64,000 nt of DNA from Chiloscyllium plagiosum (GCF_004010195.1 NC_057717.1:107482709-107546708); one strand, 5' to 3'; counted from the first letter of the stretch, positions 5,590 to 62,720 are shown. Program-made: numbers and translations. The notes: generated by a model not told the origin, from the sequence alone.

Positions 5590-8130
5590 TGATATTAAAC
5601 AGGAACTTTGAAAGAGTTGACTGGGATAGCTGTTCGCAGGTAAAGGGACATCAGGGGGGTTCAAAAGCAAGACAACAAGAATTCAGGGCTGGTGTTCCTA
5701 TTTGTGTGAAGGGCAAGGCTTGCAGAAGTAGGGAACACTGGATCACTAGAGATATTGAGGCTCTGGTCAAGAAAAAGGAGGAAGCATATGTCAGGTATAG
5801 ACAACTGGGATCAAGTGAATCCCAGGGGATGTAGGACAACAATGAAGAGGGAAATCAGGAGGGCAAAAAAGAGACATGCGATAGCTTTGGCAGATAAAGT
5901 TAAGGAGAATCCAAAGAGATTCTACAAGTATATTAAGGACAAAAGAGTAACTAGGGAGAGAAAAGGGTCTCTTAAAGATCAACAAAGTCGCTTGTGTTTG
6001 GAGCCACAGGAGATGGGTGAAATCCTAAACAAATGTTTCTCCTCAGTATTTACCATGGAAAAGGACATAGATGCTAGGGAACTTGGCGAAATAAATAGTG
6101 ATGTCTTGAAAAAAGTCCACGTTACAGAAGAGGAGGTTTGCAATTTTTGAGAAGATTTGTAGCTCAAGTTGAGGTTCAGGTTGTAAGTTTGCTCGTTGAG
6201 TTGGTAGGTTTGTTCTCAGGCGTTTTGTCACCATGCTAGGTAATATCAACGTGAGCCTACATTGAAGCACTGGAGTTCTGTCCCACTTTCCATTTATGTG
6301 TCTTGGTCTCTTAAGGTTGGTGATATCAATGTTTCATTGCTTCAACGGAGGCTCATTGATGATGTTGCCTAGCTTGGTAACGAAACGTCTAAGAACAAAC
6401 CTACCAGCTCAGGGAGTAAACTTGCAACCAGAAGAGGGGGTACTGGAGGTCTTAAAACACATAAAGATAGCTAAATCTCTCTGGGACCTGATCAAGTATA
6501 TCCCAGGACTTCATGAGAAGCTAGGGAAGAAATTGCAGGCCAATCATGGAGCCATGGGTGAGGTGCTGATAGACCAGAGAGTGACTGATGTTGTGCCATT
6601 ATTTAAGAAAGCCTGTAAGGAAAAGCCAGGAAACTACAGATCAGTGAGCCTGATGTCAGTGATGGGTAAGTTGTTGGATGGATTCTGAGAGACAGGATCT
6701 ACATGCATTTGCAAAGGCAAGAACTGATTAGGGATAGTCAACATAGCTTTGTGTGTGGGAAATCCTGTCTCACAAATTTGATTGGGATTTTTTGCAGAAG
6801 TGACCAAGAAGATAGATGAACGCAGAGCGGATTTTAGCAAGATCTTGGATAAGGTTCTGCATGTTAAACAGTTTAGGAAAGTTACTTCACGTGGAATCTA
6901 GGGAGAGCTAATCAACTGAATACAAAATTGGCTTGACAGTAAGAGACAGAGAGTTGTTGTTCAGACCGGAGGCCTGTGACCAGCAGTATGCCACAAAGAT
7001 TGGTACTGACTTCACTGTTGTTCGCCATTTATATAAACAATTTGGAAGAGCAGATAGGAGGCATGGTTAGTAAGTTTGCAAATGACACCAAAATTGGCGG
7101 TATAGTGCACAGTGAAGAAGATTAACTAAGAGTACAACGGGATCTTAATCAACTTGGCCAGTGGACTGAGGTTTGGCAATGGAGTTTAATGCAGATAAAC
7201 AATAGGTGTTCCATTTTGATAAGATGAAATAGTGCAAGACTTACACAGTTAATGATGGGGAGTGTTGTCGAACAGAGAAATCTAGAGGTGCAGGTACACA
7301 TTTCCTTGAAAGTCCCTCCCTAACGGTATTGTGGGTAAACCCACAGCAGGTAGACCCGTAGGTTCAAGAAGGCAGCTTATCACTATTTTCTCAAGTTTGG
7401 CAATAAATGGTGACTAGCCAACATTGCCCAGATTCCACAAATGAATAAAGAAAAAGAAAATGGCATTTGAAGTAGATGGTGGTGAAGAAAGCATTTGGCA
7501 CTCTTGCTTTCATTGATCTCAGTGCTCTGAGTACAGGAGTTTGGTCCATCATGTTACCTCTGTACAAGATATTGGTAAGGCACATTTGGAGGAATGCATG
7601 TAATTCTGGTCGTCCTGCTATAGGAGGGATGTTATTAAACTGGAAAGGATGCAAAAAATATTCACAAGGATATTAACGAGACTGGAAAGTTTGAGTTAAA
7701 AGGAGAGGTTGGATAGGCTGTGACTTTTTTTCCATGAAGCATAGGAGGCTGAGGGATGATCTTATAGAGGTTTATAAAATCATGAGGGGCATAGACAAGG
7801 TGAATTGCCAAGGTTTTTTCCTGAGGGAAGGGGAGTCCAAAAGTCAAGGGCATAGGTTTAAAGTAAGAGGGGAAAGATTTAAATGGGACCTGAGCAACAA
7901 ACTTTTCACACAGAGGGTGGTGCGTATGTGGAACGAGCAGCAGGAGGAAGTGGTAGAGGGTACAATTACAACATTTAAAAGACATTTGGATAGCTACATG
8001 GATGGGAAAGGTTTAGGGTGTTATGGGTCAAATGCAGGCAAATGGGACTAGTTTGGTTTAGGAAACTTGGTTGGCATGGACGAGTTGGGCTGATGGGTGT
8101 GTTTCTGTGCAGTATGACTATATGACCCAG
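5590..8130 (+). mobile_element. CR1 LINE ORF2 plus 3' UTR, frameshifted, interrupted by a Penelope-derived insert (6138-6428) and an L2-like fragment (~7310-7460)
   Basis: ORFs 5755..6150 (KENPKRFYKYIK), 6296..6688 (VVPLFKK...PGNYRSVSL) and 7734..8051 (RLRDDLIEVYKIM, FTQRVVRMWN). Confidence 0.9.
6138..6428. mobile_element. Penelope-derived fold-back insert with a hammerhead-like core (6356-6389, +)
   Basis: Inverted arms ~6179-6270 and ~6335-6429. 13-bp TSD cagaagag(g/a)ggt-type at 6125-6137 and 6429-6441 with one mismatch. Core TTGATGA-T-GTTGCC/GGTAAC-GAAAC-GTC. Confidence 0.75.
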
Positions 8131-8809
8131 AAAGTTACAAGCCAATGTTATAAGCTGTTTCTGGTTCTAATATTTGAATGCTGGTTTTGCTTTGTTTTCT
8201 TGGGAAAATTATTGAGCTAGATGTAGAGTCATAGAGGTCTGCAGCCCAGAAGAAGGCCCTTTGGTCCATCGAGTAAGCGTCAGACAAAACCCATTAAAAT
8301 CACAATGGTAATTGTAAAGTGAGAGAACAGAAGTTTGCTGTCCCACACTTCTGTGTTTATAATTCTCCACAGTGCACTTTATTTCAGAGCTTACTCATCT
8401 CCCTGAGAAGAGAATTCCACCTGAGGAGAATGCTCACAGACAACAGAACCAAATCTCCATGGAGGGCCGTAGAAGTGACCCCCCTCCCAGATTGCATGGA
8501 GGTGAGGAAAAGCACTACAGTCAAACAATAGTGAGTGAAACTTTAAATGTATCACAGTTTAGGAACATTGTAAGTTAGCACATTCTCCTTTCACCTTGCA
8601 GGTCAGCTTCCATAATGTATAGAGGGACTAGTCTGAATTTTTAAGGACCACCACGCCTTAGGCAAGGGGAGAGGTTGAGAAGGAGAGTCCTTTATGGTAA
8701 CCTCAGCTGGTGTCGGAATTGAACACATCCTGTTAGCATCACACTACGTCGCGAACTTACTGTCTAGCCATTGAGCTAAACCGATAAACAAATTATAGGC
8801 TTTAAAGAA

Positions 8810-9455
8810 CTTTAGTTGGGCCACATTAGGAATATTGCATACAGTTCTGGTCACCAAGCTACCAGAAGGATGTGGATGCTTTGTAGATGGTACAGAAAAG
8901 GCTTATCAGGATGTTGCCTAGCATGGAAGATTTTAGCTGTGAAGGAAGGTTGGATAGATGGGTTTGTTTTCATTGGAACGCAGGAGGTTGAGGGATGACC
9001 TAGATTGTAAATGGCATGGATAAAGTGGAAAGTGTGGAGGTGTCAATTACTAGGGGACACAGCATCAAGGTGAAGAGGCAAAAGTTTAAAAGAGATATGC
9101 AGGTAAGTTTTTCACACAAAGAATAGTGAGTGTCTGGAATGCGCTGCCAGAAGTAGTAGTGGAAACAGACACAATAACAGCATTTAAGGAGCACCGAGAC
9201 GAATACTTGAATAGGAAGGGAATAGAGGGACTAGGCAAAAGTGAGGACTGCTTATTCCTGATGAAGGGCTCCTGCCTGAAATGTCAATTTTCCTGCTCCT
9301 CGGATGCTGCCTGACCTGCTGTGCTTTTCCAGCACCATTCTAATCTTGAGGGAATAGAGGGATACAAATCCTGGAAATGAAGAGTTTTAGTATGGAAGGA
9401 CAAAATGTATAGGCGCAGGCTTGGAGGGTCTGTTTCCAGTGCTGTATTGTTTTTT
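8810..9455 (+). mobile_element. CR1 3' fragment carrying a Penelope-derived insert (9231-9348)
   Basis: SVWNALPEVVVE motif (ORF 9126). 14-bp TSD agggaatagaggga at 9217-9230 and 9349-9362. Confidence 0.85.
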
Positions 9456-10894
9456 ATTTTAAAGTGCTGGAGAAACTCAAGTCTGGTAGCATCTGTGGAG
9501 TGAGAAAGAGACATTTCTCCAGCACGTTCTTTGTTTCAGATTTCCAGCATATGCACTATTTTGCTTTTTTTAATTCCAGATGTCTTTATTAATTCAAAGT
9601 TCACCTTCTGTCAATTGAAACTTTGTACCCAGCACATTATTTGAGGCTCTGAACTGCTGGTCCAGTGACATTACGGCTATGCCACTGTCCCCATCTTACT
9701 TGCAATGCTGAAATTTAGAGAAATACAGTACTTGTTATATAAGACACCTTTTATGACATCAGACAAATTAAGTTAGTTTCTTGAAATGCAGTAATTGTAA
9801 GAGAGGAAATATGGAAACTTGTAAACAGAAAGAAAATAATGATGTTGGTTGAGAGATAAATATTAGCTCAGACATTAACGAGAACTTCCCTGTGCTGCTG
9901 TAGATTTGTAGCCTTTGATTTTTGACTTTTACCTCAGCAAACATTTTGGGGCTCAGCCTTATCTCAAAGGTGCTGAATTAAAGTACCAACATAGACTATA
10001 TGCTAAATTTTTTGTCAAAAGTCATACGACACCAGGTTATAGCTTTCGGAGCGTTGTCCCTTCGTCAGGTGAAATCTTTGTGCTGGACTTTAAACCTGCA
10101 AGTTTCTGACTTCAAGGCAGAAGTGTTACTTCTGATCCATGACTGATACCTTGGCTGTACTATAAGAGACCACATGTTTGTTTTCCTTTTGAACTGTAAA
10201 ATGGAAGAAAAGTCAGAAACTGCTATATTGATAACATATCAGGAGTGTTATGCAACTTGAAACATCAAGTGGGGCACATTTTTGGCTGGACAAGACTAGG
10301 GTGTTTTTGGAGCAGTGAGATCACTCCATTATTGAGACAGAGTAGCTTGACGGCATTGCTAAAATCAAAAGAATTGTGAGAAATAGCTCTGCATTTTGCA
10401 ATCTGGAGTTTTGATCTTCAGCACATTTTGTTTTCCATATCTCTGTTTCCCACCTATAATATTTGTGTCAAAGCATCTGTCTTTAATCTATCCTATTTGT
10501 AATAAATAAATTGATGGGTGTATTTATGATTTTAAAGGGGTATAGTTTAAGTTACAAAGTAGATTAGTAATCTTTTTCCATTTGTTAACAAGTAAGTTTG
10601 TTTACACTAAATAGTTATTTTCCTGTTTTTGACAAAACATGGTGTGAATTGGCTTTGTCCTGAACCGCAGTTAGTCAGGTAAATTGATCATCTTGGTGTT
10701 TTAAAGTGGGTACCTAGACATTTGTGATGGCTTGTGCAATAGTGGGGCTCAATTATTGGCACAGTCTTCCCAGTAACTACTTAATAGGGCAATGTTTCCT
10801 CCTTTGTCATGAAAGTGCTGTCTTTTATTTGGGTTAAGGTCACTTTAGCCTTCTGATAAAGCCTTCTGATAATTCTTCAAATTGGGACTTTTCT

Positions 10895-13320: not shown

Positions 13321-13368
13321 ATTTGTTTTGCTTATTTTGTTACCACTGTTTTACTTTTTTGTTTGCAG

Positions 13369-16220: not shown

Positions 16221-16229
16221 TTCTTGTTC

Positions 16230-17190
16230 ATTTGTGGGCATTATTGATAACTCATCCCTATTTACCCTTGGGAAGATGGTGGTGAGCTGCCTTTTTGAAT
16301 CGCTGCAGTCCACTTGCTGTGGATTGACCTACAATACTGGTAAGGAGGGAATTCCAGGATTTTGACCTGAAGACTGTGAAGGAACGGCAACATATTTCCA
16401 AGTCAGGATGGTGAGTAGCTTGGAGGGGAACTTGCAGGTGGTGGTGTTCCCAAGTACCTATTGCCCTTGTCCTTCTGAGTGGAAGCGGTCCTAGGTATCT
16501 AAGGATCTTTGGTGAAGTTCTGCAGTGCATCTTATAGATAGTACACGCTGCTGCTCCTGAGCACCAGTGGTGGAGGGATTGAATGTTTGTAGATGTGGTG
16601 CCAATCAAGCAGGTTGCTTTGACCTGGATGATATCAAGCTTCTTGAGTGTTTTTGGAGCTGCACCCATCCAGGAAAGAGAGGAGTATTCCTGGGGTGTCA
16701 GGAGTGAGTTACTCGCCACAGTATCCCTCATCTCTGACCTGCTCTTGTAGCCATTGTGTTTATGTGGTGAGTCCAGTTGAGTTTTGGTTAATGGTAATCC
16801 CAAGGATGTTGACAGTGGGGGATTCAGTGATGGTAATACCATTGAATGTCAAGGGGCGGTATTTAGAGTGTCTCTTATTGGTGATGGTCATTGTCTGGCA
16901 TTTGTGTGGCGCAAATGTTATTTACCACTTGTCAGCCCAAACCTGGATGTTGCCCAGATCGTGTTGCATTTGAGCATGGACTGCTTCAATATCTAGGAGT
17001 TGCGAATGGTGCTGAACATTGGCGAACATCCCCACTTCTGACCTTATGACAGAGGGAAGGTCATTGAGGAAGCAACTGAAGATTGTTGGGCCTAGGACAC
17101 TACCCTGAGGGACTCCTGCAGAGATATCCATGAGGTGAGATGACTGACACTCCACAACCACAACCATTTTCCTTTGTTCCAGGTATGACT
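16230..17190 (-). mobile_element. CR1/L2-clade LINE 3' portion
   Basis: ORF 16922..17251 [27 protein letters not shown] 16258..16842 KSWNSL...GLQRFKKAAHHHL. Confidence 0.9.
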
Positions 17191-17380
17191 CTCTGATGCT
17201 GGGGACCACTGGGTGTACTTTAAAATTCAATGAAAATACAGTTAATACCAATCACGTTGACAGGTATTGTTAAGTGAATATAGTGGCTGAATCCAAATTA
17301 CTTTTTAGAATTACTACTGCACTTGAATGCCAAAACTAATCCCAATTATTAATATTAACAGAAAGTGAAAGTAAGTTTGT

Positions 17381-19300
17381 GGGCTGAATCTTACTTTTCT
17401 ACTGGCTATGCGTCAGTTTCATCGAGGAATTCTTTCTATGATGCCAAGAGAGTTATCTCATTCTATTGTCCCAAACTGAACTATCAATTACCTATCTCAT
17501 CACAGTGGAATCCTCATCACAATGGAGTCCCCTATATCTGAGGTTAGCCTGTTTCTATCACTTACTGTTGCCTGAAGAACTGTCCATTACCAAGATGAAA
17601 TAGACTAGCATCTTTGGCACACACACTATCTTTGAAAAGGCCATTGTGCACCCACATATGCACTGTCAGTCCGGAGATGCCCTGTATGATTGTGACATTT
17701 GCTCAAAATGTGGCAGATGAGAGGAAATCGATGGTCTTCTTTGTAGCCAGCTACTTGGATGAGGTAGTGCAGAGCAGGAATATCCTCCTCCCCCAGGACT
17801 GGCAGTGGAGGTCATGTCATCAGATCCTGCTAGTCTGGTCTGAGACTGCTGCTTGGGTCATTGAAATTTCATTCAGCTGGAGAAATACACAACAGTGAAG
17901 GAAATTGGTCAGTGACTATACACTTACTATTACATGCAACATCTTCCCTCACTCACTCCAACACATCTGAATGCCCTCCTAATCCTGAATGGCCTCAGCT
18001 GTGCCTGCTCAGTTGCCACTTCTCCACCCCACTAGCAGTAGTAGCTTTGCAACCCGGTTTCATCTGATTAAATCCATCCCTTTCAATCGTTCCTGAGGAA
18101 AACAGCCCACAATGGGGCAGAAGAAGGCAAGACTGGCGGTGGGCTGCCTTACGTCCTGCTCTTACTCCCTTTGCAAAGAAGGATCTGATCCTGACTGCCC
18201 CAAGTGGCCAACTGACTGTGCCCAAGACACTGGACTGATATTGGAGTCTGGAAAAGCGCAGTGGGCCAGGCAGCATCCGAGGAGCAGGAGAATCGATGTT
18301 TCGAGCATAAGCTCTTCATCAAGAGTTAATGCTCGAAACGTCGATTCTTCTGCTCCTCAGATGCTGCCCGACTGGCTTTGCTTTCGCAACATCACACTCT
18401 TCGACTCTGATCTCCAGCATCTGCAGTCCTCACTTTCTCCTAGTTAATCTTGGAGTCTGCTTAATGTGCCAGGATGCCACTGACAGAAGATCTCTACCTT
18501 GATTGAGGATTACTGACAACCATGCAAACCTTCCTTGCTGTGCTATACAGCAAGGCAAAACAGAAATATTATGAGCCTGGTATCTGTATCTGAGTAGTTA
18601 AAGGGCATGAGGCAAGGAAAGGCAGGGATGATGTGAGCATCCAGGTAGGGTTTAGGTGAGGGAACACTAAGAAAGCAAGTGGACAACCTTAAGATGCACC
18701 CTTGGTCCAATCTGTGAGCTGGGTTTGTGTCCCTGTATGCAAAGTGTCCTTGTGACAGTATTGCAGTGCTAGTTGCCACTGCACCCTGAAAGGCAGCTTT
18801 AAAGTGTTGAAGTATGTATGGTCATGCCATGAGGGTCCAGAAAGATTGTCAAGTGTTGGATGCTAGCTTCCATGGATAGGGTGGTTGCAGCAGGTGTCGT
18901 GGAGTACCCACAGAAATTTTGTTGCCAGGTGTCCAAGATTGTGGTCCTTTGGAACAAGTGACAAGCTGAAGTCACCAGGTACTTTCTCAACTTTAATCTC
19001 GGGAATTGTTGACGTTTAGTCTCCTTTTTGGGAATAGGGAGCTGCATGTCAATGAGACAAATTTGCAATTAATGATGATGACAACAAGCAATCATCGCTG
19101 TTAACAGACATCTCACCATCTGGAACTGAAAATGCAATGAGTTGCTTCTGATATTAAGAAAGGTCTCGACTGACTTCTCACGTGATTCTCCCAGATTTCT
19201 CACCATAGCCCACATCATCCAGGACCCCATGAATTTCTGTGCCACACTTATGGATCGGCTATTCATCAAAGCCTGTAAACTACTAATGATCAGGGAAACC
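17381..19300 (+). mobile_element. PIF/Harbinger DNA transposon relic with a Myb/SANT-like fragment
   Basis: Terminus gggctgaatctt. ORF 17614..17898 (LDEVVQSRNILLP...LVWSETAAWVIEISFSWRNTQQ) resembles Harbinger Myb/SANT proteins. The right boundary is uncertain. Confidence 0.55.
18251..18449. mobile_element. Palindromic Penelope-derived insert with opposed hammerhead-like cores
   Basis: gcagcatccgaggagcaggagaatcgatgtttcgagc...gctcgaaacgtcgattcttctgctcctcagatgctgc. TSD ttggagtctg at 18241-18250 and 18450-18459. Confidence 0.85.
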
Positions 19301-20364: not shown

Positions 20365-21880
20365 AAACAGGCTGCAGATGCTAGAAATCTAAAACAGAAA
20401 TTGCTTGAGAAACTCAGCAGATCAGGTAGCATCTGTGGGAAGAAAGCAGAGTTAATGTTCTGAATCCAATGACTCCTCATCAAAGCTGTTAGTAGTTAAC
20501 TGCTAGGAAAATGTGGGATTTATGCTCAATCTAATTTTTTTTCTGGGAGGGACACAAATGGGAAGGGAAGGGGTGAGCAGATAACTGGAGACAAGTGGGT
20601 AAAAACCATGGAAGGAAGGAATCAGACTGTAAAGTTGTTGGACTCCAAGAGACTGCAGGGTTCCCAAGTGGAACACTATCATTGTTGTGAAGGGAAGAGA
20701 AAGGGTGAGGGTAGAAGTATGGGAGATGGGTCAAACATGGTTAACAGCTCTTTGACCACAGTGGTGGCAAAAGATGGACATTTCTGTGCCCCCCCCCCGT
20801 GAAAGGTGGCATCATCAGAACAGATGCAATGGAAATGGAGAACCTGGGAGAATGGAGTGAAGTAATTACAGGAAGCAGAGTGTGAGGATGTATAGTCAAG
20901 GTAACTGTGGGATTCAGTGGGTTTGTAGTGGATAATGGTGGCCCGCCTATCCCTAGAAATGGAAACTGATATCGAGAAAGGGAAGGGAGGAATTGGAGAT
21001 GGACCAGGTGCAGGGTGGAAATTGGAAGTGAAATTTACAGTTCCAAATGAGAGAGTGAAGCAGCACCTTTCTCTGGTTCATACCAACTCTGAACTGGAGA
21101 AAGAATTGTGTGGTGAAAACCGAGTAAGATTGGATCAAGCCATGTTGCACTTATCCCAGAAAGTGATGGGCATAACTGAGGCTCATGGTCACACCTTTAT
21201 CTGAAGAAAGTCAGAGGAGTTAAAGGAGAAGTTGTTGAAAGTGAGGACGAGCTTGGCCAGGCAGAGGAGGTTGGTGGTGGATGGGAACGGTTCAGGCCTT
21301 TTTTCCAGAAGAATTGGAGAGCCCTGAGACCATCCTGACGTGAATAGGATTGCACGACCATGCTGAAAAGGAAGAGGCAGAGATCCATGAACTGGAAATT
21401 TTGAAATTAACATAAAGCATTAGAAGAATTGCAGCTTTAAGTGGGAAGGGACCTGTCAAGAGGATTAAAAAAATAGTTGAGGTAGGAAGAAGATGGGTCA
21501 GGAACAGGCAGAAACAGACTTGGTTGTTTATTTTGAGGAGAAGGCAGAAGCAGGCTTTGTGAGGTTAGGGAACTTTGAGCTATAAAGCTGTCTGTGGGGG
21601 AGATCCCCAGATGAGAGGAGGTTGTTGGTAGTTGGTGAACACAATAACTGATGCTCAGGTTGGTGAACACAATAACTGGAGTTAAGGTGCAGAGGGAGAT
21701 TGGAAGGGGTGTCCCTGAACTGGCACTAAACCTCCACAATATAGAGGTCACTAAAGCAGACAACACAACACCACCCTTGTTGGCAGGCTTGATGACAAAG
21801 TCAGAATTGAATTTGAGAGCTCACAGTGCAGTCAGTTCAGAGGGAGATGAGTTCAAGTGGGTGGTTGGGGGGAAGTGGAG
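20365..21880 (-). mobile_element. Decayed Penelope-like element
   Basis: Terminal gcagatgct...aaactcagcagatcagg repeat and reverse-strand SISNSSLPFLDIS (PLE RT motif, ORF 20953..21150). Confidence 0.65.
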
Positions 21881-22262
21881 AAAATAAGGGGACCTGTGTC
21901 ACGTTGACAGTTCTTGATGAACCAGTCGAGTACAGGTAAAAGGCCAGAGGGAGAGGTCCAGGTAGAGGGAGAGTGTCAGAAACGAGCGATGGTGTCTGTG
22001 GGACGGGGAGAAGAGTTGGCCCAAAGAAATGGTATGGAGGCCATGGAAAAAAAAGAGTTCAACGTAATGTAATGCCCAAAATACATTGAGGTAGGGCTCA
22101 AAGGGATAAAACTTAACACATACCTGTGTGAAAGACCTTAATACCCAGTGTCTCAATACTTGGAAGCCACTTGAGTTTCTAGATAAAAGAGTAAAATAGG
22201 GGAGAAAAATATTGTAAAGTGCACAAAAGTTCAGATGATAATCCTAAAATATATAATTTTAG

Positions 22263-44470: not shown

Positions 44471-45089
44471 TAATGCTATTATCTTCTTCCTTCACGTAAC
44501 ATCCACAGCGCCACAATGCAGTCTAACTCTGGCATTGCATACACTTCCTGCCAAGGTTCACTGACCACAGATCTCACTGTTGCATGCATAATGCCGACTT
44601 AATGGCTTTCACCCACCTCATCCTTCCAAATGACTGACACTTCCTGTTTGTGCACTTCCCTACTCACTGAATGGGGACATCCATTCAATCCTCCTGCTCC
44701 TCATCTCCACTAACTACTCCTCAATCTATGTCCATCATACTCAATCTCTCCCATTGTCTCATTGCAGGAAAAATCCTCCTCTGTGTCCCTAAAGCAAAAG
44801 ATCCATAGTTATTTGACTAGCCCGTCTATAATTCCAGACTGATTGAACTTTACCTTCAGGACTGTCCATAGTCCAATACCATGGACTACAAGGACACAAA
44901 CTCTTGGAATAAGGTAATGCTAAGCACCCAACTGTGGCTAACCCCTGGACTAGAATCACAAGAGCCCGGACTAACCCACGAACACCCTTCGCCACGCTGA
45001 GGACTGCTTCTCTTGACTTTCACATATGGCCAATGGCTTTAAGCACGTGCAGTGTATTTGTCACTTAAACTGCTGGCACATCCTGTTGG

Positions 45090-47850
45090 TCATAGGAACA
45101 GGGATAGGCCATTCAGCCCCTTGAGCCTGTTCTGCTATTAATGAGATTGTGGCTGATCTGTGATCAAACTCCACACATCTGCCTTTGGTCCTTATCTCTT
45201 AAAGCTTTGCTTAACACTTTTTTTTTCAGCAGATTTAAAACTAACAACAATTCCAGCATTCACTGACATTTGTGAACGTGAGTTCCAAACAGCTACCACC
45301 CTTTCTGTGGAAAAGTGGTTCCTAATATCTCTTCTGAATGGCCTAACCCTAATTCTCAGACAATGCCCCTTATTTTAGAATCCCCAACCAGTGAAAATAG
45401 TTTATCTTTATCTACCCTGTCCTTTCCTATTAATGTTTTGAAGACTTCAATCAGATCATCCCTTAACCTTCTAACTCCTAAACAAGGGTGGCTTAGTGGT
45501 TAGTATTGCTACCTCACAGAGCCAGGGACATGGGTTCAATTCCATCCTCAGGTGACTGTGTGGAATTTGTACATTCTTCCCCGTATCTGCATGGGCTTCC
45601 TCTTGGTGTTCCAGTTTTCTCCCGTAATCCAAAGATGTGCAGGTTAGGTGGATTGACCATGCTAAATTGCTTCATAGTGTCCAGGGATGTGCAGGCTAGG
45701 TGGATTAGCCACTGGAAATGGAGAGTTACAGGAATGAGGGGGGAGGGGTCTGGGTCTGGGTGGGATGATCTTCAGAAGGTTGGTAGTAATTCAGTGGGCC
45801 AAATGACTTGCTTCCACATTGTAGGGATTATATTCTGTGATTCTAAGACAGACCTAATTTGTATAATCTTTCTTCATGACTTTACATCCAAAGTCCAGAT
45901 TTAATTCTTGTAAATTACTTTGTACTCCCTCCAAAGCCGCTGTATCATTCCTAAAATGTATTGTTGTAACGTTAGACTAAAGTGCTTAAACTGGTTCTTT
46001 AAGGTCTGATCAAAATGAGTACAAGAAAACACATGTGCTTTGATGTAAAGCAAATTTACTACCTTAAACTACTTCAAATATACGCAAACGAATGAGTGAA
46101 TCTATTAGTGAGTCTCATGCCTTTGTACACGTCAAAGTCCCCTCAGCGATGGCTGACATTTGGATTGCGATCTCAATTCCATGGCACCATCTGTTCCAAT
46201 GGTGAAGTCCAACAAACTGTGAAAAGTCTCTGATATGAATAGTATACTGCATGCTTTAATATTACATGCCAAATTACCTCTTCTGAGTACTTTTCCAAAG
46301 ATTCCTCTGCATTTGGTGATCAAAAAAAGTTGATAAAAAAAACAAACTGTTTTCATGCTATGTTTTTCTTCTTGCAAAACAGCCTGTTATTGCATAATTT
46401 TCCATTCTCATTCAGTTGCTTCTTACCAAGCCCAGTTGACTTCTAATGATCTGTTTTGGAGTTATAAGTTTTGGATTCATACGCTACAGGTGTCCAGATT
46501 TGCACACAGTACTTCAAGTGAGGTCTAGCCAGAGTATTGTACAACCGCAGCATATCTTCTACATCCTTGTGCTGCAATCCTCTTGATACAAAGACCAGCA
46601 TTCCATTAGATTTCTTGATTATTTTCTGCATCTGTTCCTGTTACTTTAAAGACCTATGTACCTGACCCCCCAAGTCTCTTTAGATATTCACTGTATTTAA
46701 CTTCATACCATCTAGGAAGTACACTGATCTAGCCTTTTTTGGTTTAAAATAGATAACATCATACTTGCTTACATTGGACTCTATCTGCCACAATCTTGTC
46801 CATTCATTTAGTCTAACAATATCCCTTTGTAATTTTGTGCTACTATCTACACTGTCTAAATTGCCATTTAACTTTGCATCATCAACAAATTTAGATATAC
46901 GACTTTCTGTGCCATTCTCCAAGTTATTAATAATATGAATAATTGAGGCCCTAACGCAGATCTTTGTGGAACACCACTTAACACATCCTGCCAATTTGAC
47001 TACCTCCTGATTATCACTACTTCCTATCACCTGCCACTCAACGAAATTTCCTAGCCAAGTCAGTAACTTACCCTCAGTCTGTGGGCTTCTACCTTAGTTA
47101 ACTGCCTCTTGTGTGAGACTTCATCAGATGCCTTCTGGAAGTCTATAAAAACAACATCCATAGAAATTCCCCTGCCCACTACCTACTCATCTCTCCAAAA
47201 GATTCAATGAGGTTGGTCGGGCATGACCTACCTGTCACAAATCCATGCTGGCTCTCCCTGACTAACGGGAATTTTCAAGGTTTTCAGTTACCCAATTTTT
47301 AATTATAGACTCCAACAACTTCCCTGCCACAGATGTTAGGTTAACTGATCTATGGTTCCTTGACTTACCTTTTTCACCTTTCTTAAACAGCAGAGTGACA
47401 CATGCAATTTTCCAATCCAGAGGATGGCTGCAGTATCAAGGCAACTCTAAAAGATTATAATTAGGGCAACTTCAATGTGCTCCCTATTTCTTTTAACACA
47501 CTTAGATCAAAACTATCAGGTCTTGGAATTTGTCACTATTTAATTCCATTAGTTTCCTCATTATCAATGTTTTACTTGCATTTGTTTTATTCAGTTCCTG
47601 TTCCTGATCTACTATTAATTTCTTCAGGGCTTCTGACAAGCTCTCTTCCTGTTCTATGGTAAATGCAGAGGCAAAGTAATTATTCAGCGCGTATGACATT
47701 TCCCCATAGTCCTTGACATTGTCCCCACTTTGACTCTTTAGTGGACCAACTTAGCTTCTGAATACCCATTTTCCTTTAAGTAACTATAAAATGTCTTCTC
47801 ATTGATCTTGATGTCCCTGGCAAGTTCCCTTTCCTAATCCCTTTTCATAG
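45090..47850 (-). mobile_element. Old CR1 LINE, interrupted
   Basis: ORFs 46443 (LARPHLKYCVQIW), 46680 (ISKFVDDAKL) and 47502 (ALNNYFASAFT). Confidence 0.85.
45485..45845 (+). mobile_element. HE1-like tRNA-derived SINE
   Basis: A box gtggcttagtggttag, B box gggttcaattcc; body matches 14971-15325. Confidence 0.85.
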
Positions 47851-48019
47851 CTGTTACAAGCTACTTGGTGGACCTTTGCTGGCCCTTGACTGTTCAGTGC
47901 TTCCCACTGTGACAAACTGTTTGCCTTTTCCTTTGCATTCAGAAGCTGTGTAAACCACAGAGATTGGCAAACTGTTTCTGAACATGCAAGACCATGTACA
48001 CTGAAAAAGCACTGTGACC

Positions 48020-48260
48020 CAGAGAGAGGCTGGCAGCCTGTAACTTAGTGCTGAAGTCAATGAGTGTATGTTAAGAAAGCAATGCAAAAGTCTGCTGAAG
48101 TCAGTGAGTAAGCTCAGAACGCAATGAAAAGTAGACAGATGCTGGCAGTCTATAAGTCAGTGCTGAAGTCAGTGAGTGCACTAAGAAAGCAACATGAAGC
48201 ATACAGAGGCTGGTGGCCTCCAAGTAAGATCAAAGTGAATGAATGCTAAACAAAAAGTAA
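48020..48260 (+). repeat. Diverged tandem repeat
   Basis: tgctgaagtca(a/g)tgagt three times and ga(g/t)gctgg three times, at 40-70 bp spacing. Confidence 0.7.
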
Positions 48261-48613
48261 GATAAGTGCCATAAGATGCATCCTGTACACATTACATTTC
48301 CAAGAGTCAAGAAAAAAAATTATTTACTATTGCATTCACAACCTCAAGATATTGCATTTAAGTATTTTTGAAATGTAGTTACTGTTGTAATGTAGAAAAC
48401 CAGTGACAGCGAGATTGTACACAACAACTCAGATCTGTACCATGAGTCAAAAACATGGAAATCCCTCCTTACCAGCACTTGAATGCGTCAACACCACACA
48501 TGCTGCCGCAGTATAGCAATACAGCTCACCACCATCTTCTTAAAGGCAATTAGAGATGAGTAATAAATGCTGGCCTTACTAATGATGCCCACAGCCAATA
48601 AAGAGATACCACT

Positions 48614-49109
48614 TGCCTGCCCCTCTTCCGCGGTTATGTTAGAGCCCGGGTGTCCTTGGAGAAGGAGCACGCGGTGTCGACCAACAGCCTGGAGTTGTTC
48701 AGGGAGAGGTGGGCGCCGCAGGGAGTGGAGTGCATCATTTCTCTCTCCAATTCTATTTTGATTTAGTCCCTACCCTCCCCTTCACTGTTTTGATCACACA
48801 GCACTGTCCCTTGATGTGAAGGGCAGTGCTTGTCACTGGCCACCCGGGTGTTTTCCTATCTTCCTGGTGGTGGAATTTGAATAAAGATTGGTGCACTTTG
48901 TGTCTTCCACTGTGTCTCACACCTGCACACACAAACCATGGGTGCTGGGGATAAAATAAGCACTACTGCACTTAGGTGGTAGTGTGGGGGAAAAAAAAAG
49001 AAAGAAAAAAAAACAGGAGTACCCCTACATCCACCATGGGTGCTGGGGATAAAATAAGCACTACCAAAGAAAGAAAAAAAGAAGAAAAAAAAAATTAAAA
49101 AAAATAAAA
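48614..49109 (+). mobile_element. Young 5'-truncated Tx1/L1-clade LINE insertion
   Basis: Uninterrupted C-terminus CLPLFRGYVRARVSLEKEHAVSTNSLELFRERWAPQGVECII...stop, A-rich tail, perfect 17-bp TSD aataaagagataccact (48597-48613; 49110-49126). Confidence 0.75.
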
Positions 49110-50439
49110 AATAAAGAGATACCACTATGCTTTTTCAGTTCTACATCAGAGGTTCAGACCTAGATAACACACTTGCGTCTCCTGAATGGGACTTGAAACT
49201 ATAACTTTCAAACCAAGTGGCAAGAGTCCAACAACTGAACCATAGCTGACACATTCTAAACTACATTTGATGGAATTCTATGATATTTTGTGAAAATTGG
49301 AAACAGATTATGCACTTTAGCTTTGTTATGTTAGGCTTTTTTGTGCAGTGTATTGTGAAGTAGGTCTTATTTGGTATGAATATTGAATGTTACAGTTGAT
49401 TATAGTTGAGTATTTACTTGTTTGTTGAATCATTTGACAGAGATCCTGTGAATCAAAAGTAGGATGAGGTATTTCCCAAAGGAAAAGGAAGAATTATTGG
49501 AATCATTATTTGTTGACCGGAATGGTTGAGGGTTGAGAGAGTGTCAGGCAGATGTAAGGGGATTTTAAGTCTATAGAAAGTACAGTGGCTAAATGCACTG
49601 CCCACTCTGATAATTATTGATGTAAATCAAGTGTTCCCATGGTCAATATCTGTGCTCAGTTGGTGAATCAGGTCTCAGCAGTAGTGATGCTCCTTTGTCT
49701 TGGTGCCACATTTGGATGTGGTGGTCAGCAATTAAGTATTCTGTCATTGCCTAACCTTAATTAAATAAAGGTCCTTTGTACAAGGCTCCAGAAAGCTGCA
49801 AGTATCGAAGAATAATATTCCATAAGTGGTCAGCACCTTCAGGAGAGGAGAAAATTGAGTGAAAAGGAAATAAATTACTTTGAGATAAAGTATTACCAAT
49901 AAGCACAATCCTATTGATTAATCACTAAGCTAAAAAAAAGTTAGATATCAGAAACACAAACAAAATTGCTGGAAAAACTCAACAAGTCTTGCATCATCGG
50001 TGGAGGAAAAGCTTTCTGTATTAAACACACTGCCACATCTCCTCCAAGTATGCCTACCTGAAGAAGTTCTGCTTCTCTCTGACAGTTCTGAAGAAGGATC
50101 TCTGGACCTGAAACATTCACTCTACTTTCTCACCACCGGTCCTGCCGGACCTGTTGAGTTTTTCCAGGAATTTCGGTTTGTGTCCCACTGGTTAATTGTT
50201 TATTGTTTGTGTGTGCATTATTTGATCCAATCAAGTTACTAAAACTATGTGCAAATCATTTGCAAAACAACCAGATATATCATGGAACAGGGCATTCCTT
50301 ATATAAAAAGATTAGTGACCTATTCTAACATGCCATAAAACTGTTTCCAGAATTCAAAATTATATGAACTTGTTCCAGTTACTGACTTTTCGCAAAAGTC
50401 AGAAGTACCATTTTCAAATGTCAACAAGGTTTAAACACC

Positions 50440-52100: not shown

Positions 52101-52399
52101 AGCAATACAGCCTTATCCAATGTATCCACTTTACTAATTTTGAAAGTCTTTAATGATTGAATTTCCTCCTCTGTCATCATGGTCTGTATAGCATCAGTTG
52201 CATTTATATCTGCAAGTGTATTTTACCAGGGTTTTAGTGTTCATGTACCCCAATCTTTCACTTAGACACACATTTATCCATGATTAAAGAATCAAAACCA
52301 GCTTTTTTAATTCCAATGGCAAGATTTAGGAATCTAGTATACTATCAGGATAAGGAGCCTTATTAAACAATGAAGTTTTGTACACTTAGAGCACACTAA

Positions 52400-53245
52400 G
52401 TGTGCTTAGGCAGAGAGTTGGGATAAAAGGTTCTTTTTCGGAATGGCAGCCGGTGACAAGCGGTGTCCCGCAGGGTTCAGTGTTGGGGCCGCAGCTGTTC
52501 ACATTATATATTAATGATCTGGATGAAGCGACTGGGGGCATTCTAGCGAAGTTTGCTGATGATACAAAGTTAGGTGGACAGGTGGAGAGGAAGTGGGGAG
52601 GCTGTAGAAGGATCTAGACAGTTTGGGAGAGTGGTCCAGGAAATGGCTGATGGAATTCAATGTGAGCAAATGCGAGGTCTTGCACTTTGGAAAAAAGAAT
52701 ACAAGCATGGACTACTTACTAAACAGTGAGAAAATTCGTAAAGCCAAAGTACAAAGGGATCTGGGAGTGCTCGTCGAGGATTCTCTAAAGGTAAACATGC
52801 AGGTTGAGTTCGTGATTAAGAAAGCGAATGCAGTGTTGTCATTTATCTCAAGAGGGTTGGAATATAAAAGCACCGTTGTGCTACTGAGACTTTATAAAGC
52901 TCTGGTTAGGCCCCATTTGGAGTACTGTGTCCAGTTTTGGTCCCCACAGGACCCGTGGACACAGCCTTAGAATTAGAGGGGATAAATTCAGAACAGAAAT
53001 GCAGAGGCATTTCTTCAGCCAGAGACTGGTGGGCCTGTGGAATTCATTGCCGCAGAGTGCAGTGGAGGCCGGGAGCTAAATGTCTTCAAGGCAGAGATTG
53101 ATAAATTCTTGATGTCACAAGGAATTAAGGGCTAGGGGGAGAATGCGGGTAAGTGGAGTTTGAAATGCCTATCAGCCATGATTGAATGGTGGAGTGGACT
53201 CGATGGGCCGAATGGCCTTACTTCCACTTCTGTGTCTTAATGTAT
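52400..53245 (+). mobile_element. CR1 RT plus 3' end with an internal deletion near 52950
   Basis: [24 protein letters not shown]...FADDTK; LVRPHLEYCVQFWSP. Confidence 0.92.
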
Positions 53246-54469: not shown

Positions 54470-57400
54470 AAATTAATTGATCGCACACATTCAAGTGAAT
54501 AAATATGATCCGGCAACCATTTCAGAAACATGGCTAAAGTATGACAAAAATTGTAATCAGAATAATGAGAGATGTTCGATTTGCAAGGAAATTAGTAAGT
54601 TAGGTAAAGGTGGAGAAGTTACAGTGTTAATCAAGGAAGACATTTGTGTAACAGTTAAAGGTGATCTCAGTTTAGGAGATCAGGATTAGAATGGGGTTGG
54701 ATGGAGAGGGGAAATAGTATGGGGAAGATGTCACCAATGGGAATGGTCTACATGCCCTCTTAGAGTAACCACAACGTGGGATAAGATATACAAGAAGAAA
54801 TTCTGGTGTTTGTGATAAAGGGAAGGCGATAATCAAGGATGACTTTAATCTAAACAGGAAACATCAGATTAGCATTGGTACCCCGGATGAGGAATTCATG
54901 GAAAGGTTTTTAAATAGTTTCTTAGAGCAGCATTTTCTGGAGGCAACCAGAGAGCAGGTTAAATTATTGTGTGATGCAACAGTATTAATTATTAACCTCA
55001 GAGTAAAGCTACCTGTAACTATCAATAACTGTACTACTACTGAATTTTACTTTCAGTTTGAAAGGGAGAAAATTAGGTCTATGACCTAGTATTTTAAACC
55101 TAAATAAGGGCAACTACATAGACATGGAAACTGAGCAAGCTGAAGCAAACTGGCATACTAGGCTAGAGGATAGATGAATGGGATACAGTGGCAAGCATTT
55201 AAGGGGATATTTCAGAATATTTAGAATACTTACGTTCCTACTATATTGAACAATACTAAAGGGAGGACCAACTATCTGTGATTAACTAAAGAAGTTAAGG
55301 AAAGCATCAAACCTGAGGAAAAATGTATAAGGGTGAAGGAACCTTCGATGACAAGAGATGTGGAGTGTCGAGTCAAGAGGAAGAAGGAAGCTTTCTTAAG
55401 GTTAAAGAAGCAAGGATCAGACAGCGCTCTAAAGGGTTATAAGGTAGCCAGAAAGGAACTGAAGGATGGACTTAGGATAGCTAGATGGGGACATGAAAAA
55501 TCTTTAGCATGTAGGATTAAGGAAAATCCCAAGCCGTTCTACACTTAGGTGAAGAACAAGAGGATGGCCAGTGTGAAGGTAGGGCTGATCAGGGGTAGTG
55601 AAAGTAACTTGTGCTTAGAGTCGGAGAAGCTAGGGGAGGTCCTTAATGAATACTTTGCTTCAGTATTCACTAGTGAGAGGGACATTGTTGTTTGTGAGGA
55701 CAGCATGAAACAGGCTGATATGCCTAAACAGGTTAATGTTAAGAATGAGGATGTGCTGGAAATCTTGAAAAACATGAACCAGACAGGATGTACCCAAGGT
55801 TACTACAGGAAGCAAGAGAAGAGATTGCTGTGCCTTCGTCGATGATCTTTGCGTTCTCAATGTTCACTGGAGTAGTACCAGATGATTGGAGTTAGCAAAT
55901 GTTAATCTTTTGTTCAAGAAAGGGAATTGGGATAACCCCAGGAATTACAAACCAGTCAGTCTTAAGTCACTGGTGGGCAAGTTATTGGAGAGGATTCTGA
56001 GGGACAGTATTTATGATTACTTGAAAAAGCATTGTCTGATTAAAGATAGTCAGCATGGTTTTGTGAGTGGCAGGTTGTGCCTCACAAGCCTTATTGAATT
56101 CTTGGAGCATGTGACAAAACACATTGATGAAGGTAGAGCAATGCATGTTGTGTGTATGGATTTTAGCAAGCATTTGATCAGGTTCCCCATGGTAGGCTCA
56201 TTCAGAAAGTAAGGGATGCATGGGATACAGGGAAATTTGGCTGTTGATTCTGGCTTATAGAATACAGTGAGTGGCAGTAGATGGAAAGTATTCAGCCCAG
56301 AGCTTGATGTCCAATGGTGTTCCACAAGGGTCTGTTCTGAGACATCTGCTGTTTGTGACTTTTATAAATGACTTAGATGAGGAAGTGGAAGGGTGGGTTA
56401 GTAAGCTTGCAAATGACACGAAGATTGGTGGAGTTGTGGATAGTGTGGAGGGCTGTTGTCGGTTGCAACAGGACACTGACAGGATGCAGAGCTGGGCTGA
56501 GAAGTGGCAGATCGAGTTCAACCTGAAAAAGTGTGAAGTGATTCATTTTGGAAGGTCAAATTTGAATGCAGATTACAGGGTTAAAGGCAGGATTCTTGGC
56601 AGTGTGAAGAACAGGTTCTTAGGGTCCACGCCCATAAGATCCCTCAAAGTTGCCACCCAAGTTGTTAGAGTTAAGAAAGCATACGGTGTGTTGGCTTTCA
56701 GTAGGAGGGGGATTGAGTTTAAGAGCTGCAGGCTATGCTGCAGCTCTATAAAACCCTGGCTAGACCACACTTGGAATATTGTGTTCAGTTCTGGTTATTT
56801 CATTATAGGAAGAATGTGGAAGCTTTAGAGAAGGTGCAGAGAAGATTTACTAAGATGCTGCCTGGACTGGAGGGAATGTCTTATGAAGAAAAGTTGAGGG
56901 AGCTAGGGCTTTTCTTATTGGAGTGAAGAAGGATGAGAGGTGACTTGATAGAGGTGTACACGATAATGAGAGGCATAGATAGAGTGGATAGCTAGAGACT
57001 TTTTCCCTGGGCGGAAATGGCTCTCACAGTGGGGGGCATGATTTTGAAGTGATTGAAGGGAGGTTTAGGGGAGATGTCAGAGGTAAGTTCTTTACAAAGA
57101 GAGTGATTGCATTGTGAAATGCATTGCCAGCATTGATAGTAGAGTCAGATACATTTGGGACATTTAAGGAACTCTGGGATAGGCACATGGATGATAGTAA
57201 AATGTATGGGATGTAGGTTAGTTTGATATTAGAGAAGGATAAAAGGTCAGCACAACATCGAGGGCCGAAGGGCCTGTATGTGCTGTACCGTTCTATCTTC
57301 TATGTGCAAAGATGAATGGTTAGAATATATCCAATGGCTGAGAATGACTGAAAATTTAATGATGAGAGGAATCTAGCTAGGAATGTCAAAGCAGATAGGA

Positions 57401-59939: not shown

Positions 59940-61434
59940 GACTGCAACATGCTAATTTTCCATTGGGATGCAAGCAAACTTTTTTTGTATTGTGAAATGT
60001 GTTTTGCTTTGATGCCTATCTGTCTGATCGTTAGTCTATCTCTTGTGATACAATTTTTTAATTATTTTACTTTTTTAATAGTTTACAAATCAAATGTCTG
60101 GTCTTTTTATCTTGTTCTGCTAGTTTGTCAGAAATTACAAGGTTGTTTAATATATTGAAGATGTTAATTTCATTTAGTTCTTGATTATGGAATTAACCTA
60201 AGAAATAACCTTGGAGCCAATTTTCATATAAAGGCTAATATTACACTTTTATGTCTTCCCTTCACCCTTGATTTCAGTCATGAGTGATGGCTGATGTATG
60301 GTCAAGTTGTCGATAAACAAAATATTTTTGCCATTAATGTTAGCAAGACCAATCTATGCTGTTCAGACCCTGCTAGAAATTTCATTTAGTTCTTGATTAT
60401 GGAATTAATTTGAGAATTAATTACTGAAATTAACCTAATCAAAACAAATAAATGTTGTTCTCACAAGTATATGTGTGAGCCAAAGTTGAATTCTCAAATT
60501 GAAAATTAAAAGAGAATTATTATTTTAAAAAAAAGGGTATGATATAAATATACATCAATGTTTTCAGCTTCAAACCTGATGTGTATTTATATCATACCCT
60601 GTTTTTGACAGATTGATGATCAGGTTGATGTACAGTTTTAGATTCCTCAAAGTGCTTCATTTACATTAGATCTTTCAAATTTTGCCTTTGCAAGCAACTA
60701 ACTTCAAAAAATGTTGCTCAAAACTTTAATTTATCAAGACGTCATCTCAAACCATGTTTATACAATTTCATAGCTGGTCAGTTTAATTTCTGCTTTCTTT
60801 AAATTGGAGTTTCACTGCCAGGGAATATTATCCATTCAAACAGATATTGATACATTGTGCTTCTTGCTATCAACCTTGTCTACTGGTTGGTTTCATCATT
60901 GAGATGGTCAAAGCTAGAATGAAGTTGAGCTATGCACATTTTATCTGACTTCCTGCTGTTCCTAATAAACGGAATCTTAACTGGCAAATTAGGACTTTTA
61001 ACTGCAAGCTTCAAAATTACAGCTTTTAAGACCTTAATAAAACTAGTTGAATACTTTGAATATTTCTTCAATTAAAACCTAATTGTGATATATTATTTGG
61101 TCAGTCATGTATTTCTGGCTATTTGCTAATTCTGGAACAAAATTTATTATATGTGAGTAATTAAAAAACAGATAAATCAAGATGGTTTCAAATTTGCAAT
61201 GATTGTATAAGATGGTGTCTTGCTGGCTAATGACAATGAATATAATATGAAATTAATCTATAGGTGTTCTAGTTACCCATAAAAAGAACTATCTAGGCTT
61301 GCTTACAGTCAGTGCTGCTGATCCATTAATTTTCTAAGTGTAAAGTATACCTTCTATATTTGTGAAGTCTTTTTTTTTTAACAAATTTACACACCAGCAT
61401 GTTCACTCAAAATCATATTTCTGTTATATTTCAG

Positions 61435-61463
61435 AAGTGGCAAAAAATGACAACATAAATGAG
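61435..61463 (+). CDS. Candidate exon 8b (29 nt): (T)SGKK-stop after exon 7, or (K)VAKNDNINE if joined in phase 1
   Basis: Acceptor tatttctgttatatttcag and near-consensus donor GAG|gtgagt. The donor implies a further exon downstream that I could not locate in the window. Confidence 0.5.
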
Positions 61464-61739
61464 GTGAGTGATCTACGTTAGAGATATTTAAAAACTGTGA
61501 CTCTAGGCATTGATTCCAGGTGGGCCTGTAATTTTCAATATTAAGCTGTACCTAAGAAATAACCTTGGAGCCAATTTTCATATAAAGGCTAATTTACACT
61601 TTTATGTCTTCCCTTCACCCTTGATTTCAATCGTGAGTGATGGCTGATGTATGGTCAAGTTGTGGATAAACAAAATATTTTTGCCATTAACATTAGCAAG
61701 ACCAATCTATGCTGTTCAGCCCCTGCTAGAGATTTCAAA

Positions 61740-62720
61740 CATGGGGTTCCATACACTTGTGAATTCCATATAATCACAGTTATTTTGGGTGAGTATAATT
61801 GAGGATTCAGATAGACAATGCACATAAATGTCACACTTGTCTTGAATTGACTTTTCCAGTATGATCTGTGTAGACCTCCTTAGCTTCATTCCACATAAAT
61901 GCCAATTCCTCAAGAACATTACTGCCCTCATCCTGTCCTTCATTAAGTTCCACCCAACAAATCACAAAGTGCTTACTAATCTCAATAAACTTCATAACGA
62001 CAACAACAAGAGCACAATTCCCTAGATATGGTCTTGCTAAGGCGCTGTATAACTAAAGGAAAACATCCCTCATTGTGTACTACATTATTTCTGTAATAAA
62101 CAACAACATTCTATTTGCCTTCCCAGTTATCATTGTACCTTCATTCTAGCCTTTTGTGATTCATGCACCAGGATCTTCCAGATCTCGCTGTCCTGCAGAG
62201 CTTTGCAGTCTTTCTCCATTTAAACAATACTGTGTTTGTGTTCTTCCTGTCAAAATGATCAAGTTCATATTTTCCTACAGGAGAGTCCATATGTCAAACT
62301 TTTACTCACTCAGTTAACCTATCTCTTTGCAGCCATCTTGTATCTTCTTCACAAATTCCCCGCCTGCTATTAAATGTGGCAACATTGCATTGGATTCTGT
62401 CAGGAGGAGAAAGTGAGGACTGCAGATGCAGAAGATCAGTGTCGAGAGTGTGTTGCTGGAAAAGCACAGCAGATCAGGCAGCATCCAAGGAGCAGGAGCA
62501 TTGATTTTTCGGGCATAAGCCCTTCATCAGGAATAGAATGATGAAGAGCTTATGCCCAAAACGTTAATTCCCTTGCTCCTCACATGCTGCCTGACCTGCT
62601 GTGCTTTCCCAGCAACACACTCTCGACATTGGATTCTGTCATCCAAGTTATTAATATGGTTTGTAAACAGTTGAAGCATTAGCTGTGGTCCCGATGGTAC
62701 TTTGTAATTACTGCTTGCCA
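61740..62720 (-). mobile_element. Old CR1 fragment with a palindromic Penelope insert (62403-62626)
   Basis: 15-bp TSD cattggattctgtca at 62388-62402 and 62627-62641; opposed hammerhead-like cores around 62500-62565. Confidence 0.8.

Follow-up and report, generated by a model that had tools for sequence, protein, structure and literature searches.

Minimal hammerhead ribozymes (min-HHRs) of metazoan Penelope-like elements (PLEs) were described by Cervera and de la Pena in 2014. According to that account, a min-HHR on its own shows no activity, and cleavage by dimer or trimer constructs is weak and seen mostly at non-physiological Mg (PMC4209133). The hammerhead of PAc, a Poseidon element of Anolis carolinensis, was reported to cleave only with the element's protein, and the same report describes no RNA-seq ends at the cut site (PMC11167929). 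The non-LTR retrozymes (LTR, long terminal repeat) are recorded from many vertebrates, birds and mammals being excepted in the accounts consulted (PMC7229834; bioRxiv 10.64898/2026.07.22.740005). The second of these accounts reports their depletion from Xenopus introns and names one chondrichthyan as sampled for tandem retrozymes. What PLE hammerheads do is still called unclear in the literature consulted, and among the papers listed by our search none dealt with hammerheads in cartilaginous fishes. Here we analyze hammerhead-like motifs in a 64,000-nucleotide stretch of the Chiloscyllium plagiosum genome (GCF_004010195.1 NC_057717.1:107482709-107546708), which we call the window. These motifs are very probably type I hammerheads of the minimal, helix-III-less form, located in the 3'-terminal module of PLEs, the copies being 5'-truncated and decaying. 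The analysis shows the motif itself, its repeat structure and flanking direct repeats, a link to a PLE open reading frame (ORF), the genome counts, and the decay pattern. The element is of the kind described in 2014, in a genome outside the coverage set out in PMC4209133.

The motif was sought with descriptors of differing stringency. A strict descriptor, requiring both core boxes, a G-C closed stem II, GAAA, a complementary 15.2/16.2 pair, and UH, gave three matches in the window (34131-34158 +, 39446-39473 +, and 10040-10068 -) and none in 200 second-order Markov simulations of it. A relaxed scan, which tolerated a single mismatch in CUGANGA and required GAAA and a stem II of 4 bp or more, gave 13 matches. 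Nine of these are sites listed in an earlier note on this DNA (6356-6389 +, 9258-9285 +, 18295-18322 -, 25557-25584 -, 34131-34158 +, 36393-36420 -, 39446-39473 +, 39661-39688 -, and 62503-62530 -), and four are unrelated to any repeat family (40789 +, 41718 -, 59784 -, and 62429 +). The loose pattern CTGANGA-N6-30-GAAAC occurred eight times against 1.33 expected, a number reached in none of 100 shuffles; four matches are claimed sites and four belong to no repeat family. Visual inspection and alignment were used for further listed positions, namely 10041, 43054, 50088, and the second strand at each of 18295, 25556, and 62500. Taking scans, alignment, and inspection together, all 13 sites of the earlier note carry the motif or a damaged version of it where the note had placed it. 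The two + copies that it called intact, 34131-34158 and 39446-39473, both satisfy the strict descriptor and share one 28-nt sequence, namely CUGAUGA, an extra A, GGGC-UUUU-GCCC, GAAAC, and GUC. Five pieces are additional to that list: 6175-6267 -, 36762-36846 -, 37385-37431 +, 38346-38384 -, and 39692-39795 +.

The loose-pattern and relaxed-scan matches that lie outside repeat families are what one would cite for the idea that the motifs are chance hits to a short degenerate pattern. We give this idea practically no probability. Besides the strict-descriptor result, the motifs occupy a fixed place in alignable repeat families, and the pattern CTGANGANGGGCNNNNGCCCGAAACGTC occurs 44,050 and 44,116 times on the two strands of the 3.56-Gb genome (88,166 occurrences), whereas the reversed pattern gave 0. 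The count is of a 28-nt pattern in which N7, the extra base, and the loop are free, that is, of exact copies of one stem II type. Chance matching is thus refuted for the listed sites, and the recurring motif is real and far beyond chance.

The structural details define distinct families. The 15.1-16.1 tetranucleotide is palindromic, with no loop III, and reads ACGU in families 1 and 2 and AGCU in family 3. Helix II is closed by a G10.1-C11.1 pair, with one unpaired base after A9; in family 1 the base is A and the stem is GGGC/GCCC. Helix I of family 1 comprises C-G and U-A pairs, then U/U, then A-U. Genomic members of family 2 read CUGAUGA-U-GUUACC...GGUGAC-GAAAC-GUC and have a 4-bp helix I (CUCA/UGAG), and the sequence reads as though their motif directly followed the C-terminal end of the PLE ORF. 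In family 3 stem II is GGGGC/GCUCC with an unpaired A, and longer copies have the helix I UCAC/GUGA. At least 948 candidates were counted for family 4. Stem II varies and yet stays paired, as had been claimed: it is GGGC/GCCC in the main family, GAGC/GCUC at 18295-18322, and GUUGCC/GGUAAC at 6356-6389. The CUGANGA, GAAA, and UH core is complete at 34131-34158, 39446-39473, 10040-10068, and 25557-25584, and is broken in the other listed copies by changes at C3, G5, A9, G12, or the C17 region, or by deletions.

The likeness to the min-HHRs, as set out in PMC4209133, extends to the type I topology, the CUGANGA and GAAA boxes, the single unpaired base between A9 and G10.1, the G10.1-C11.1 pair, the lack of loop III, and the palindromic 15.1-16.1 tetranucleotide. 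It extends also to the division into families with co-varying helices, the position in the PLE terminal repeat region, and the occurrence mostly as single dispersed motifs from truncated elements, with opposite-strand pairs 100-700 bp apart. The differences lie in copy number, 88,166 exact copies here against the ∼4,000 motifs of the coelacanth and ∼9,000 of Xenopus given in that report, and in the short helix I of the main family (below).

Assignment to PLEs comes from the ORFs that accompany the module. At one genomic locus (L033) a 382-aa open frame upstream of the module contains KIHK and RYIDD motifs. Forty-seven proteins of 676-1130 aa match this frame; their precomputed domain calls are RVT_1 and, for several of them, GIY-YIG, as confirmed by a Pfam scan of four of the proteins. 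The identity of the frame to P0015 is 45% over 242 residues. A reverse transcriptase (RT) followed by a GIY-YIG endonuclease is given in the literature consulted as the defining PLE architecture, and a module downstream of an RT/GIY-YIG-type ORF therefore marks a Penelope-like element. In three genomic copies with long ORFs (754-1170 aa) the motif overlaps the end of the frame or lies 160-370 nt beyond it. In the window itself, tblastn with five PLE proteins found two ORF remnants, one at 20778-22116 (-) and one at 33380-33637 (+) that shares an arm with the 34131 motif and lies upstream of it. The stretch 39436-39580 has at least 1,373 candidate genomic copies, of which 40 were scored, and many copies extend further upstream. 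A Pfam scan of 35 frames upstream of seven long genomic copies returned one sub-threshold match only (PF22807), although a protein search shows the L033 frame to be clearly PLE-like. Genome-wide there are at least 139,606 candidate PLE protein matches. With a decayed RT/GIY-YIG-type ORF upstream, and core boxes, extra base, G10.1-C11.1 pair, and palindrome that fit the published description, the identification as helix-III-less, dimer-type PLE hammerheads that the earlier note had offered is borne out.

The arrangement of the copies points to retroposition. Self-comparison gave 17 family-1 pieces in the window, the query copy included, and an oriented alignment revealed a shared unit of ∼100-135 nt that starts a few bases before the CUGA box and has a conserved tail at its end. 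Copies at 9251, 36295-36426, 39442, and 43051 are solo. Others form head-to-head pairs with the hammerhead ends at the joint (18236-18400, 25498-25679, 39639-39795, and 62405-62626), and one larger pair spans 33134-34228. Direct repeats of 13-15 bp flank six of 13 elements examined. Solo and inverted layouts with variable direct repeats are a signature of retroposition, not of a cut-and-paste mechanism with a fixed short duplication, and 5' truncation and adjacent inverted copies are stated traits of PLE insertions in the literature consulted. Twin priming on a single RNA was also considered for the head-to-head pairs; it fits 9217-9362 and is less simple where both arms repeat the same segment.

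The other described systems resemble this one in part. PAc shares a minimal PLE hammerhead and the use of unprocessed RNA as template, and its protein is reported to cleave and extend both DNA strands in vitro, which could underlie inverted insertions (PMC11167929). However, the PAc motif overlaps the start of the ORF, whereas here it lies after the ORF, ∼100-135 nt from the 3' end of the element. The non-LTR retrozymes are likewise short, non-autonomous type I hammerhead units from the PLE terminal region (PMC7229834; bioRxiv 10.64898/2026.07.22.740005), but these accounts define them by tandem arrays giving circular RNAs; in the present case copies stand alone or in inverted pairs, and self-comparison and alignment found no head-to-tail tandem hammerhead array among the window copies. 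The Sm-alpha elements of Schistosoma, as reported, are very abundant short retroposons with a hammerhead near the 5' end (PMC6765202). Their hammerhead is canonical and stands behind a promoter, whereas the one here is of the minimal type and no promoter was identified.

Most copies in the window have decayed. The genomic count predicts ∼1.6 intact copies per 64 kb and two are seen; these two are the expected survivors of a very large population. Among the 12 family-1 pieces that keep the box region they are the only intact ones, one more (25557-25584) has only a G-U closing wobble, and the remainder have changes at C3, G5, A9, G12, 15.2/16.2, or C17, or deletions. In a 343-kb sample, consisting of the window and loci fetched for other purposes from which copies targeted by the fetch were dropped, the motif was intact in 17 of the 38 copies that cover it, the window contributing 2 of 11 and the other loci 15 of 27. 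Conservation across these 38 copies was lowest at the CpG positions of CCCGAAACGTCG, where a change alters G12, the palindrome ACGU, or the opening pair of helix I. Among exact genomic copies, the single stem II variants GAGC/GCCC and GGGC/GCTC number 1,345 and 1,103, and the compensated GAGC/GCTC numbers 393 against ∼17 expected if the changes were independent. The GAGC/GCTC doubles listed mostly share one loop and N7 haplotype, and we read the excess as probably one source copy with a restored pair that was later amplified. Taken as evidence for constraint on the fold, it amounts to a single event of moderate weight. Families 2 and 3 point the same way, since each retains a 4-bp helix I and a helix II of 5-6 bp built from different letters.

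Several results weigh against the assignment. An Rfam 15 cmscan of the whole window with 4,227 families gave no hammerhead at the gathering score or at E values up to 10; the Rfam models may lack coverage of helix-III-less forms. Helix I of family 1 has only two contiguous pairs, compared with 4-5 bp in most PLE hammerheads, and the two intact window copies have one and zero, in line with the weak stem I already remarked upon for both. Seven of the 13 elements examined have no flanking direct repeat. A second, upstream motif, as in a layout with pseudo-long terminal repeats (pLTR-ORF-pLTR), was not seen in any of the three long-ORF copies examined. Finally, the genomic copies keep the part 5' of the cut site, which implies that their templates were uncut.

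The last point raises the question of what the motif does, on which the start points of the copies also bear. Of 54 family-1 copies that were retrieved incidentally and extend 60 nt or more beyond the CUGA box, 23 have their start 1-7 nt ahead of it, most often at -4; the start lies further upstream in 15 and inside or after the box in 16. In the match table of family 4, 37 of 40 scored copies start within ∼10 nt of the box. These starts, together with the head-to-head joints, suggest that much of the copied RNA starts where helix I starts. They would also suit a motif that is kept for a role other than cleavage, as a 5'-terminal fold for the PLE protein or as a site of RNA-RNA dimerization, since it would stand at the very 5' end of a copied RNA whose templates are uncut. 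The near absence of helix I in family 1 favors such a role, as do published accounts in which in vitro activity is very low or protein-dependent and hammerhead-less PLE clades proliferate well. Nevertheless, we consider a role other than cleavage unlikely, because the invariant letters are those of the hammerhead catalytic core (CUGANGA, GAAA, and UH) in families with different helices, and an invariant core is hard to explain without catalysis. Mutation of C3 or G8 is moreover reported to abolish cleavage by the Anolis PLE hammerhead, and the double mutant to restore it in part (PMC11167929).

A further proposal gives the short units a life of their own. The 100-135-nt hammerhead-headed units would be a discrete short RNA that starts 4-5 nt before the CUGA box, parasitizes the PLE machinery, and has reached ∼10^5 copies. 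The ACGU palindrome would join two such RNAs head to head, and dual-strand priming or a 5'-end jump would then produce the head-to-head insertions jointed at the hammerhead. RNA pairing or template handling would then be as much the task of the motif as cleavage, or more so. We regard this as a long shot.

We return to the PLE hammerhead assignment and to the sequence of events that it entails. At least four PLE families have scattered 5'-truncated copies across the region, many of them consisting of only the last 100-135 nt and beginning 4-5 nt before the CUGA box. Insertion was probably by target-primed reverse transcription, the copies being single or head-to-head, and the inserted copies have since decayed neutrally, the CpG sites of CCCGAAACGTCG foremost. 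The hammerhead would act within RNA of the element itself, perhaps together with that element's protein, and its likely role would be the processing or handling of PLE transcripts, not that of a host-gene device. Target-primed insertion and any cleavage activity are inferred.

The earlier note had instead proposed that the 34131 and 39446 copies, lying in one intron, pair through ACGU so that a double hammerhead cuts the host pre-mRNA. Both 28-nt cores do pass the strict descriptor, on the same strand and 5,315 nt apart, and dimer cleavage of such motifs has been published, at low rates according to the sources consulted. However, helix I is defective in each. In the 34131 copy it consists of one G-C pair followed by a U/U mismatch, and it ends there because a 14-nt partial duplication follows GUC; in the 39446 copy it starts with a C/A mismatch. 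The modeled dimer (helix II plus the intermolecular ACGU), at -18.9 kcal/mol, is less stable than two inactive hairpins at -11.2 and -13.5 kcal/mol, in which the thermodynamic model pairs UGAUG with the cut-site region. In minimum-energy folds of the + strand (contexts of 361 and 1,161 nt), 34131-34158 pairs with 33217-33190 and 39447-39472 pairs with 39687-39662, so that nearly every motif base is paired with a neighboring antisense copy. Two intact copies per 64 kb are also the genomic background: the genome counts imply that about 1 in 8 intact copies has a same-strand intact neighbor within 5.3 kb by chance, and the pair is thus not special. The poor cleavage published for minimal hammerheads even as tandem dimers, and the protein dependence reported for the Anolis hammerhead, tell against the proposal as well. 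On these grounds, cutting of a host pre-mRNA by the two intact copies is not supported, and we consider it very improbable.

Transcript and domain searches likewise offered the proposal nothing. In a weak test with ∼2% of one poly(A) single-cell run, 29,500-49,400 had no exon, splice joint, or unique-sequence RNA coverage, reads falling on repeat parts only, and there was no pile of read ends; position 39474, adjacent to the cut site, is covered by 23 reads, which derive from family copies elsewhere. A Pfam search of 438 stop-to-stop frames found no host exon, only RT fragments and three sub-threshold matches (PF20131, PF12046). The frames comprised 138 of at least 78 aa from the whole window, 150 of 50-77 aa from 1-29,340, and 150 from 29,295-54,093; the set thus had a lower limit of 50 aa and stopped short of 44 frames of 50-77 aa past 54,196. 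The motifs of this locus are ordinary debris of a very successful retroelement group and give no grounds for expecting that a host transcript is cleaved in a regulated manner. At the genome scale, the 88,166 copies and the 393-copy compensated variant are a rich natural data set on selection of PLE hammerheads, and one that bears also on why mini-elements begin exactly at the ribozyme.

The two intact motifs lie in different settings. That at 34131-34158 belongs to a family-1 tail module at 34127-34228 (+), the right arm of the large head-to-head pair. Directly after its GUC, 34159-34172 is a 14-nt partial tandem duplication of the GCCCGAAACGUC region. The second copy has A at the two sites that in the first copy are the G of a CpG (CCCAAAACATC versus CCCGAAACGTC). 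The left arm of the pair is a family-1 tail module at 33134-33227 (-), whose motif at 33190-33217 has a C-to-U change in stem II and G12-to-A. The pair is bracketed by a 15-bp direct repeat (33074-33088 and 34230-34244). Over 33074-34244 as a whole, two 5'-truncated Penelope-like copies stand head to head and form an inverted structure of ∼1.1 kb centered near 33500. It includes the Penelope-like ORF remnant at 33380-33637 (+), which matches residues ∼577-751 of full-length relatives, and its long hairpin gives rise to weak microRNA-like Rfam matches at 33413-33587. The matches of this kind at 18270-18366 and 25554-25620 are also hairpins of head-to-head repeats.

The second intact motif, 39446-39473, lies in a solo family-1 module at 39442-39535 (+). 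Its position 1.1 is A, where the family usually has G, and helix I consequently opens with a mismatch. Close by, the 39639-39795 pair consists of a tail-truncated inverted arm at 39639-39693 (-), with a motif at 39661-39688 changed by C3-to-U, a G10.1-U wobble, and C17-to-U, and a full-tail arm at 39692-39795 (+) in which the CUGAUGA box is absent. A 13-bp direct repeat with one mismatch flanks this pair at 39628-39640 and 39798-39810. Hundreds of RNA reads derived from other family copies depart from the window sequence at 39795-39798, immediately beyond the point where the 39692-39795 arm has its 3' end. Of these, 128 continue into a consistent sequence with AATAAA, which places at least one copy elsewhere within an expressed transcript.

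The remaining family-1 pairs are damaged to differing degrees. The pair at 18236-18400 has a minus arm (18236-18328), whose motif at 18295-18322 (-) carries C3-to-U and G16.2-to-A together with the compensated stem II GAGC/GCUC, and a plus arm (18313-18400) without the box. In the pair at 25498-25679, the minus motif at 25557-25584 retains both core boxes, GAAAC, and GUC, its sole stem II change being the G10.1-U11.1 wobble, and the plus motif at 25590-25617 has A9-to-G, G12-to-A, C15.2-to-U, and C17-to-U. The pair at 62405-62626 has a minus motif at 62503-62530 with C15.2-to-A and G16.2-to-A, and a plus motif at 62538-62565 with C3-to-A, an A/C mismatch in stem II, G12-to-A, and C17-to-U; a 15-bp direct repeat flanks it at 62388-62402 and 62627-62641. 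A head-to-head arrangement on a larger scale is found at another genomic locus (L059, G000:C5), where a 149-nt inverted repeat, 97% identical (oriented positions 2362-2510 and 6044-6192), brackets a 1170-aa Penelope-like frame.

The family-1 module at 9231-9348 (+) has a motif at 9258-9285 with a G10.1-U wobble and C15.2-to-U. Direct repeats of 14 bp at 9217-9230 and 9349-9362 enclose it, and within 9217-9362 an inverted 21 nt of the element's own tail abuts a unit missing its last ∼35 nt. The layout resembles that of twin priming, the inverted segment stopping at the usual 5' start of the unit. The solo module at 36295-36426 (-) has a motif at 36393-36420 that is intact except for G5-to-A; a 15-bp direct repeat flanks the module (36280-36294 and 36427-36441). 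The module at 43051-43119 (+) has an internal deletion, so that its motif stops after loop II and GAAAC-GUC is missing. Three family-1 fragments complete this set: 36762-36846 (-) has no box and carries G12-to-A, 37385-37431 (+) has only the 3' part of the motif, and 38346-38384 (-) has part of the tail and no motif.

A family-2 module at 6340-6433 (+) has a motif at 6356-6389 with C3-to-U and an intact 6-bp stem II (GUUGCC/GGUAAC); its helix I is weakened by UAAG in place of the UGAG of genomic relatives. An inverted family-2 partner at 6175-6267 (-) has a destroyed motif, with a broken box, A at G12, and GCC for GUC. The family-3 motif at 10040-10068 (-) has the AGCU palindrome and A at H17, and satisfies the strict descriptor only if stem II is taken as 3 bp. 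An internal deletion common to a subfamily has removed from this copy the helix I partner found in longer relatives. The family-4 module at 50083-50183 (+), with a motif from 50088, has a poorly paired stem II and AUU for GUC.

Besides these copies, the window contains the decayed Penelope-like RT region at 20778-22116 (-), which has no hammerhead attached. RVT_1 fragments at 4644-4916 (+), 16925-17251 (-), 25259-25489 (-), 35020-35283 (-), 52390-52614 (+), and 55886-56825 (+) had no tblastn match to the five Penelope-like proteins and probably belong to other retroelement classes. A run of 835 N bases, either a gap in the assembly or a withheld stretch, occupies 24107-24941, and an AT-rich hairpin at 60535-60599 gives a weak Rfam match to mir-4536 (29 bits against a gathering score of 76).

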